Positions 15,934 through 15,988 of a DNA stretch of 64,000 nt are shown piece after piece (position 1 is the first letter of the stretch; every line of letters starts with the position of its first letter). The position numbers and the translations under genes are program-made. Where the stretch lies: the sequence record PP925839.1, one strand, 5' to 3'. Origin of the DNA: Escherichia phage PinkRuby. A model generated the notes under the pieces. That model saw only the letters and a program-made list of their open reading frames with translations. It did no database searches and was not told where the DNA came from.

Positions 15934-15988
15934 TTCCTCATGTTATGTCAGTAAAACTATTGTAACACAACACGAGGGACTTGTAAAC
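15934..15988 (-). repeat. 55-bp promoter-leader cassette, copy 1 (near-identical copy at 31724-31778)
   Basis: About 50/55 identical bases including gtttacaagtccctcgtgttgtgtta and ttactgacataacatgagga. Confidence 0.8.
15959..15988 (-). promoter_or_regulatory. T4 early-type promoter (GTTTAC -35, TACAAT -10)
   Basis: Minus strand GTTTACA-N17-TACAAT directly upstream of ORF 15637-15927; -35 overlaps stop codon of upstream alt paralog. Confidence 0.55.

Follow-up and report, generated by a model that had tools for sequence, protein, structure and literature searches.

We examined a stretch of 64,000 nucleotides from Escherichia phage PinkRuby (sequence record PP925839.1; hereafter, the window), a segment of a Tequatrovirus (T4-like) genome that is approximately 97% identical to phages such as teqdroes. 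All coordinates are those of the window. The minus strand, which is the coding strand at both loci considered here, carries two intergenic regions with nearly the same sequence. The first lies between a gene for an Alt-like ADP-ribosyltransferase (15988-18045) and alt.-3 (15637-15927; 96 amino acids). The second lies between rnlA and alc (31214-31720), which encodes an inhibitor of host transcription and for which T4 annotates the second ATG (31717). The open reading frame (ORF) listed for rnlA (31782-32942) starts at an in-frame upstream GTG, and the annotated gene has 1125 nt. The original prediction was that the sequences upstream of the ORF at 15637-15927 and of alc match at about 50 of 55 bases and form a repeat of promoter, leader, and Shine–Dalgarno (SD) site. 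Both gene assignments made there are correct, the ORF at 15637-15927 being alt.-3 of T4 and that at 31214-31720 being alc.

The duplicated promoter cassette

An ungapped pairwise comparison of 15935-15988 with 31725-31778 showed that 50 of 54 positions are identical at an offset of 15790 nt; in the frame first proposed (15934-15988 and 31724-31778), the figure is 50 of 55. Comparison of the window with itself recovered the same pair as direct-repeat family D10 (54 nt, 93%). Copy 1 (GTTTACAAGTCCCTCGTGTTGTGTTACAATAGTTTTACTGACATAACATGAGGA; 15935-15988) extends from the stop codon of the alt-like gene to the SD site of alt.-3, and copy 2 (GTTTACAAGTCCCTCGTGTTGTGTTATAGTAATCTTACTGACATAACATGAGGA; 31725-31778) extends from 3 nt past the rnlA stop codon to the SD site of alc, each copy being the whole intergenic region. 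The identity of both copies cuts off sharply, starting at the G of GTTTAC and stopping past GAGGA. In copy 1, this first G doubles as the final base of the alt-like stop codon TAG. The flanks of the two copies are unrelated; over a 121-nt frame 73 positions are identical and nearly all of these are within the repeat.

Read along the minus strand, the cassette consists of GTTTACA (the –35 element), a 17-nt spacer (AGTCCCTCGTGTTGTGT), TAyArT (the –10 element, with TGn before it), and the leader with the SD site (..cTTAC TGACATAACATGAGGA). A promoter scan placed GTTTAC, the T4 early-promoter form of the –35 element, at 15983-15988 in copy 1 and at 31773-31778 in copy 2. The –10 hexamers are TACAAT (15959-15964) and TATAGT (31749-31754). 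Both copies score 10/12 as T4-type early promoters and have the arrangement that defines this class (GTTTAC(A), a spacer of 17 ± 1 nt, and TGn + TAnnnT), with a spacer of 17 nt in each. Start sites were placed with the general spacing rule for sigma-70 promoters, by which transcription is predicted to begin 7 nt past the –10 element, at the A of cTTAC (15952) in copy 1 and at 31742 in copy 2. The leader is approximately 25 nt long and is followed by the SD site, and the ATG comes 4–8 bases beyond the end of the cassette. The promoter, leader, and SD site predicted for the two loci are therefore present in both copies.

The cassette resembles other T4 early promoters, which comprise UP, –35, TGn, and –10 elements, in its GTTTAC, its 17-nt spacer, its GT-rich stretch followed by TGn, and the cTTAC at the start site. 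It seems to differ in having a poor A-rich UP region (approximately –40 to –60) because coding sequence reaches the –35 element: copy 1 has AAAAAG approximately 20 nt upstream, and the upstream coding sequence of copy 2 is not A-rich. It also differs in that the consensus of the other eight promoters accounts for just 20 of the 50 identical positions. The remainder are the two arms of a hairpin that is described below. Among 45 pairs of GTTTAC-type early-promoter cassettes in the window, the median identity is 28/54 and the second-best pair reaches 40/54. The identity of the alt.-3 and alc copies is beyond chance and beyond the promoter consensus; on realignment it covers the whole cassette rather than being confined to the –35 and –10 hexamers. 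This is as originally proposed, and what that proposal missed is the cause of the extra identity, namely that the promoter spacer and the leader with its SD site are the arms of a conserved RNA hairpin.

The repeat is also found in other T-even genomes. A 63-nt query matched 997 places in 499 phage records, and essentially every Tequatrovirus genome, T4 and T2 among them, has two of these places. The T4 sites are 123035-123097, upstream of alt.-3, and the gap between rnlA and alc. The two T4 copies differ at 1 of 54 positions (53/54 identical), and in one IMG/VR contig the two copies are identical; the pair in the window, with four differences, is among the more diverged. Scans of IMG/VR with Alc and Alt.-3 returned only 5–6 T4-like contigs, and the comparative set was taken from GenBank phage records. 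Copies within a genome differ at a mean of 2.7 positions and paralogous copies from different genomes at 2.66. Because these values are the same, there is no sign of ongoing gene conversion, and we rejected gene conversion or concerted evolution between the copies. Both loci are kept near one consensus by selection. We conclude that the repeat is a genuine, conserved, duplicated regulatory cassette. One record, PQ799574.1 (phage vB_EcoM_Maryam; 113 kb, labelled a complete genome), contains the alc copy alone, and the alt.-3 copy was not found in that record. Its rnlA–alc context is normal and we rejected it as a recombinant.

It had also been proposed that the copies provide homology for recombination that would invert or delete the approximately 16 kb between them, and the repeat might matter mainly in this way. 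T4 recombination uses short homologies, and pairs of another repeated cassette of T4-like phages, PeSL, yield deletions and mini-circles (PMC2839356). However, the two copies are in direct orientation, so recombination between them cannot invert the interval. A deletion of 15.8 kb would take out the essential genes 30 (DNA ligase) and 31, along with cd, pseT, alc, and alt. The terminal redundancy of a headful is approximately 3%, which a 16-kb duplication would exceed. Queries that joined the rnlA end, the cassette, and the alt.-3 start, as a deletion would, were at least 80% covered in 0 of 499 Tequatrovirus records, and those that joined the alt end, the cassette, and the alc start, as a duplication or circle would, in 0 of 497. 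It is exceedingly improbable that rearrangement is the main significance of the repeat, and the recombination risk can be set aside.

A conserved hairpin between the promoter spacer and the SD site

Within each cassette, a segment of the promoter spacer (CCUCGUGUUGUGUUA) is complementary to a segment of the leader (UGACAUAACAUGAGG). Minus-strand RNA is predicted to fold into a 15-bp stem with a 12-nt loop that holds the –10 box and the predicted start site. In copy 1, the 5′ arm is at 15963-15977 and the 3′ arm, which contains the SD site (GAGGA, 15935-15939), is at 15936-15950. The arms of copy 2 are at 31753-31767 and 31726-31740, the latter again containing the SD site (GAGGA, 31725-31729). 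The fold energies are –24.3 and –27.8 kcal/mol (z of –3.4 and –4.2), and no shuffled sequence equals them. By contrast, RNAs truncated immediately 3′ of the –10 box (6 nt short of the predicted start site) fold no better than shuffles. Three of the 15 stem pairs are G-U and are valid only in sense-strand RNA. Because the 5′ arm is located between the –35 and –10 elements, it is upstream of any start from the cassette promoter, and the promoter's own transcript does not contain it.

Several known types of element were considered for this structure and rejected. The terminator scan made no call at the cassettes, where the U-run that follows the GC-rich stem of an intrinsic terminator is not found and the tails past the stems are AACACAAAAUG and CUUUAUGAUG. 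A search of the whole window against Rfam at the gathering score gave no family match. The hairpin was also rejected as a RegB target (GGAG), as the SD site of Tequatrovirus is GAGGA and GGAG occurs in some genera only.

Most of the variation within Tequatrovirus falls in the loop of the hairpin. Five of the six stem substitutions preserve pairing (G-U to A-U twice, C-G to U-G twice, and U-G to U-A once), and the sixth loses the outermost pair. For a wider comparison, we used alc upstream regions from 14 phages in which alc was located by protein similarity, independently of the repeat. In eight genera the alc promoter begins with GTTTACA, and the first 7–17 nt of the spacer are complementary to the SD region of the same phage, even as the arm sequences differ. 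These genera are Tequatrovirus, Gelderlandvirus (5′ arm UCUCCGUUU, 3′ arm AAACGGAGA), Karamvirus (UCUCCAUUUGGUU and AACCAAAUGGAGA), Jiaodavirus (UCCUCAUCAG and CUGAUGAGGA), Dhakavirus (UCUCCUCAU and AUGAGGAGA), Kanagawavirus (CIP9; AUCCCAUUUUGUU.. and ..AACAAAAUGGGGAU), Winklervirus (UCCUCAUUUCGUU and AACGAAAUGAGGA), and Bragavirus (ACCUCUCAUUUUU and GAAAAUGAGAGGU).

We evaluated this pairing in two ways. In an alignment-free test, duplexes between each spacer and its cognate translation initiation region had a mean energy of –19.2 kcal/mol versus –11.0 kcal/mol for non-cognate duplexes, and 0 of 100000 permutations were as low. The five genera with a common pairing register gave an ungapped MAFFT alignment in which 13 pairs were 96.9% paired and 8 of the 13 were changed on both sides; 0 of 500 shuffles reached this, and controls in which the arms were slid were 35–55% paired. 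A MAFFT alignment of all 15 cassettes was also ungapped, but the pairing register varies by genus (i+j = 60 to 65). This alignment was not used for counting because one structure cannot be counted across differing registers. Similarly, no covariance model was built because it would rest on an alignment already fitted to the structure. From the cognate duplex test and the paired double changes, we conclude that the alc hairpin is a selected structure.

The region upstream of alt.-3 gives a different picture outside Tequatrovirus, where its type differs and the alc-type version does not occur. Dhakavirus and Marfavirus have a CCACA..UGUGG spacer there with no SD pairing, and pairing is weak in RB69. 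In Kanagawavirus, the spacer GAAUGAACG pairs with AUG-CGUUCAUUC, sequestering the start codon and first codons rather than the SD site, and in PEi20 a C-to-U change leaves the pair intact. Most simply, the alc cassette, which is found with covarying arms in most Tevenvirinae genera, is the ancestral one, and the ancestor of Tequatrovirus acquired a copy of it in place of its alt.-3 promoter region. Among alc upstream regions, the leader of Mosigvirus PhAPEC2 (AACACGAGGAG) still matches the Tequatrovirus spacer (–20.6 kcal/mol), and this phage has a spacer of the CACC..GGTG type, as if a crossover within the cassette had taken out the 5′ arm. Separately, Gaprivervirus VR7 has an additional Alc-like ORF of 77 amino acids between rnlA and alc, with a GC-rich terminator before it and a different hairpin (GGUUCCAUCA..UGAUGAGGACC) over its SD site.

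These comparisons bear on whether the repeat is simply a duplicated promoter, the product of recent copying or gene conversion, in which the hairpin is incidental and has no RNA role. The two copies are clearly of common origin, and the other promoter types of alt.-3 in other genera would fit such a history. Against it, the pair is fixed in approximately 499 genomes including T4 and T2, the within-genome and between-genome differences given above carry no signal of conversion, the alc hairpin covaries across genera, and the stem substitutions preserve pairing. We consider a plain duplicate highly improbable.

The hairpin is not limited to the two copies. In the window, 4 of 10–11 GTTTAC-type early promoters have a hairpin between the spacer and the SD site. 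One instance with an unrelated sequence is at 61398-61459 (minus strand), where the spacer CUGUUCUUCCGU pairs with ACGGAGGAACAG, the SD region of a 37-amino-acid membrane ORF in the ndd region, at –23 to –25 kcal/mol. A weaker instance is upstream of gene 30.8 (24927-24986, minus strand), where the spacer CUCCUUUGU pairs with the SD region ACAAAGGAG. The same scan of T4 positions 1-78000 found SD-covering hairpins at regB, nrdC.8, motB.2, and denV and a weaker one at e.8. It also found hairpins in which the 3′ arm is right past the –10 element at ipII (65718), dmd (20553), mobD.2 (57932), and ipI (73878). Across 32 promoters, nine cognate spacer:leader duplexes fell below the 1% tail of the non-cognate duplexes when 0.3 were expected (permutation p < 5e-5). 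As a comparison, the 18 nt upstream of the –35 element at the same 32 promoters gave 0 below this tail. The alc/alt.-3 repeat is thus the most conspicuous, because duplicated, member of a common T-even early-promoter design.

It is possible that this design is a general one that has gone unlisted, and we advance the following tentatively. A quarter to nearly half of T-even early promoters may be inside hairpins with the spacer as the 5′ arm, and in many of them (alc, alt.-3, regB, motB.2, denV, nrdC.8, the ndd-region ORF, and 30.8) the 3′ arm may be the SD site, forming an early-only gate that mirrors the late-only control of genes e, soc, and 49. Cassettes of this kind could be transplanted, as from alc to alt.-3, or half replaced, as in Mosigvirus alc with its old 3′ arm and new spacer.

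Two other promoter types were seen. In a second class, made up of the T4 promoters of ipII, dmd, mobD.2, and ipI and those in the window at 24556 (minus strand) upstream of 30.7 and at 28453 (minus strand) upstream of an ORF between cd.2 and cd.3, the spacer pairs with 10–13 nt right past the –10 element (down to –22 kcal/mol), leaving the –10 element in the loop and the SD site uncovered. A recurring spacer with its own mini-hairpin, CCACAAGGA(C/T)GTGG, is present at 61965 (minus strand) in the window, at alt.-3 of QL01, and at 2403 and 50915 in T4, before various genes and in various genera. This spacer seems to mark another promoter family that has undergone shuffling.

The complementarity could also act in DNA: a cruciform or a hairpin in single-stranded DNA might lay the –10 box open and help the promoter to melt, or the inverted repeat might be a preferred site of recombination or nicking. 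In line with this, approximately nine of the 32 promoters have a spacer complementary to sequence just past the –10 element, the sequence upstream of –35 never is, so that the pattern is centred on the promoter, and PeSL crossovers have been mapped between the –10 element and the SD site (PMC2839356). However, 3 of the 15 Tequatrovirus pairs are G-U and variants add U-G, which are A-C mismatches on the other DNA strand. In addition, the alc 3′ arm tracks the SD site across genera, and T4 early promoters that have no hairpin match the consensus equally well. A role in DNA is very unlikely on this evidence.

Transcripts entering from upstream and early translation

Both cassettes are positioned to be crossed by RNA from upstream. 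The terminator scan found no terminator-like site on the minus strand from rnlA to alc or from the alt genes to alt.-3, and the genes directly upstream, alt-like and rnlA, are sources of read-through RNA. A T4 late promoter, TATAAATA, is located at 20166-20173 (minus strand), between a terminator-like hairpin and the first alt paralog. Late RNA from it would cross both alt genes into copy 1, and in T4 alt belongs to the late genes. This unit ends at a two-way terminator hairpin (15611-15632) between alt.-3 (minus strand) and gene 54 (plus strand). At the other locus, the T4 middle promoters PnrdA, PnrdB, and PI-TevIII are upstream of denA-rnlA-alc (PMC2988021).

The timing of expression changes at the same places. 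Time-resolved omics of T4 classed alc and alt.-3 as early RNA and early protein, alt as late protein, alt.-1 and alt.-2 RNA as middle, and the rnlA and denA proteins as late (PMC9697503). The temporal class thus switches exactly at each cassette, which supports a working early promoter there and fits translation that is early only. The original suggestion that the repeat co-regulates unrelated genes is plausible to this extent, as both downstream genes are early in T4 and their upstream neighbours are not.

We also calculated the cost of opening the region from the SD site to the AUG. Opening energies were used in place of the unpaired probability of the SD site because the latter is misleading for the alt.-3 own transcript, which has weak local pairing. 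In read-through RNA the predicted cost is 15.8 kcal/mol for alt.-3 and 16.3 kcal/mol for alc, versus 2.0 and 3.9 kcal/mol, respectively, in the transcript from the cassette's own promoter. For six other early promoters in the window there was no such difference.

On this evidence, it is likely that RNA begun at the cassette promoter is the only RNA from which alc and alt.-3 are translated and that upstream read-through is not used, with the hairpin gating translation by the origin of the transcript. RNA begun at the cassette promoter would start past the 5′ arm, its ribosome binding site (RBS) would be open, and alc or alt.-3 would be translated. RNA arriving from upstream, whether late transcripts from the alt late promoter or middle and delayed transcripts via nrdB-denA-rnlA, would hold both arms and fold, hiding the SD site. 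The cassette would in this way tie translation to the promoter of origin, and Alc and Alt.-3 would stay early-only despite later transcripts across their genes.

Alternatively, the hairpin could serve the upstream message, stabilizing the 3′ end of rnlA and alt transcripts, attenuating them, or marking them for processing (e.g. by RNase III), with the SD overlap being secondary. A role of this kind was proposed for PeSL stem-loops, which terminate transcription effectively in RB49 and phi1 (PMC2839356). It would suit the position of the stem, which begins within 10–13 nt of the preceding stop codon, and the second class of T4 early promoters, in which the spacer hairpin ends before the SD site. 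It is nonetheless unlikely. The stems have no U-tract past them and drew no terminator call, and in eight genera the alc 3′ arm always covers the SD site despite sequence change, an overlap that a stabilizer does not need.

Several observations weigh against gating by transcript origin. At ipII, dmd, mobD.2, and ipI of T4 the 3′ arm stops short of the SD site, which hints that hairpins around the –10 element may have a further or different role. The second promoter class described above, with its SD site uncovered, is the main reason that the DNA-level and upstream-message explanations stay in play. An SD-covering alc hairpin is missing in Mosigvirus PhAPEC2, Kanagawavirus KLB31, Gaprivervirus VR7, Acinetobacter phage Ac42, and Aeromonas phage phiAS4, and the hairpin is therefore not indispensable. 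The alt.-3 own transcript has a weak alternative pairing of its SD site. Lastly, the upstream stop codons are 10–13 nt before the 5′ arm in both copies, and ribosomes terminating there may weaken the outer pairs and permit a degree of coupled initiation.

If gating by transcript origin is correct, it would explain how Alc, which kills host transcription, the RegB nuclease, and Alt.-3 are kept strictly early under later transcripts. It would be a compact use of sequence, the promoter spacer doubling as an anti-Shine–Dalgarno. The abundance of late transcripts over these genes in phage RNA-seq would then not predict protein synthesis, which bears on annotation, and in the engineering of T4-like phages upstream cargo or promoter swaps would silently alter translation. 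C-terminal extension mutants of T4 Alt.-3 escape the CmdTAC defence system (PMC11618068), and the proposed tight early-only control may bear on Alt.-3 and this escape.

The window contains other repeats. Two full-length tandem alt paralogs (15988-20145, minus strand) give rise to families D2, D3, D8, D9, and D12, with a spacing of approximately 2094–2103 nt and 70–80% identity. The second paralog is cut down to the fragments alt.-1 and alt.-2 in T4, and there are three paralogs in Dhakavirus QL01 and one in ECML-134. Other early-promoter cassettes form families D4 and D5 (40155-40226, 40874-40948, 58117-58191, 61411-61482, and 61917-62001) and are 65–81% identical over 72–75 nt, with the identity taking in an A/T-rich tract at the upstream end, the leader (TACCCTATCAACTA), and the SD site. 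A tandem direct repeat at 3973-4548 (family D1; 288 nt, 77% identical) possibly encodes repeated protein domains. A terminator-like hairpin, GGGGCCGAAGCCCC, is repeated at 24087-24124 and 63035-63072 with similar flanks (family D13; 79%).

Comparison with known systems

The PeSL cassettes of T4-like phages are alike in being a repeated intergenic early promoter with an SD site and start codon, and the alc/alt.-3 cassette matches the T4/PST PeSL promoter consensus TTTACW-N17-TAYWAT (PMC4122927). As with PeSL, one copy was apparently transplanted to a second gene. However, PeSL stem-loops are terminators positioned ahead of the promoter. Coding sequence of the upstream gene reaches the –35 element of the cassette, leaving no stem-loop before the promoter, and the sole stem-loop of the cassette straddles the –10 element and start site, ends on the SD site, and has no U-tract. 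By this defining feature of PeSL, the cassette is not a PeSL. It also has two copies only, 15.8 kb apart across essential genes, and no insertion or deletion by recombination between them was seen, 0 of 499 genomes having a deletion or duplication junction.

The hairpins of Aeh1 mobE and of the T4 segB type are similar in that a local RNA hairpin hides the RBS of a gene within a longer transcript. They limit the expression of a selfish gene and are not made from a promoter spacer, as that of the cassette is.

Full-text literature searches found no paper describing a hairpin between the spacer and the SD site at T4 early promoters, although older primary T4 papers were outside their scope and an earlier description is possible. 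A 2010 review of post-transcriptional control in T4 lists only cases with late promoters, and alc, alt.-3, and other early cases are not among them (PMC3014915).

The closest likeness is to the hairpins of T4 e, soc, 49, and I-TevI, in which the SD site, the AUG, or both are in the 3′ arm and a promoter is internal to the structure; experiments have shown that the transcript from this internal promoter, which lacks the 5′ arm, is translated and that RNA from upstream promoters is silent (PMC3014915). The effect of the gene e hairpin is approximately 100-fold (PMC3014915). The cassette is predicted to behave in the same way, as in long transcripts its SD site is paired in a stable helix, the 15-bp stem including GAGG. 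It is unlike these genes in two respects. They carry a late internal promoter (TATAAATA) and are expressed late only, whereas a motif scan found no TATAAATA inside either cassette, where the promoter is of the early sigma-70 type and the predicted effect is early only. In addition, the 5′ arm of the cassette is the –35/–10 spacer itself. Together, these comparisons indicate that the cassette is a variant that probably works like the e, soc, 49, and I-TevI family and is outside the set described for it.

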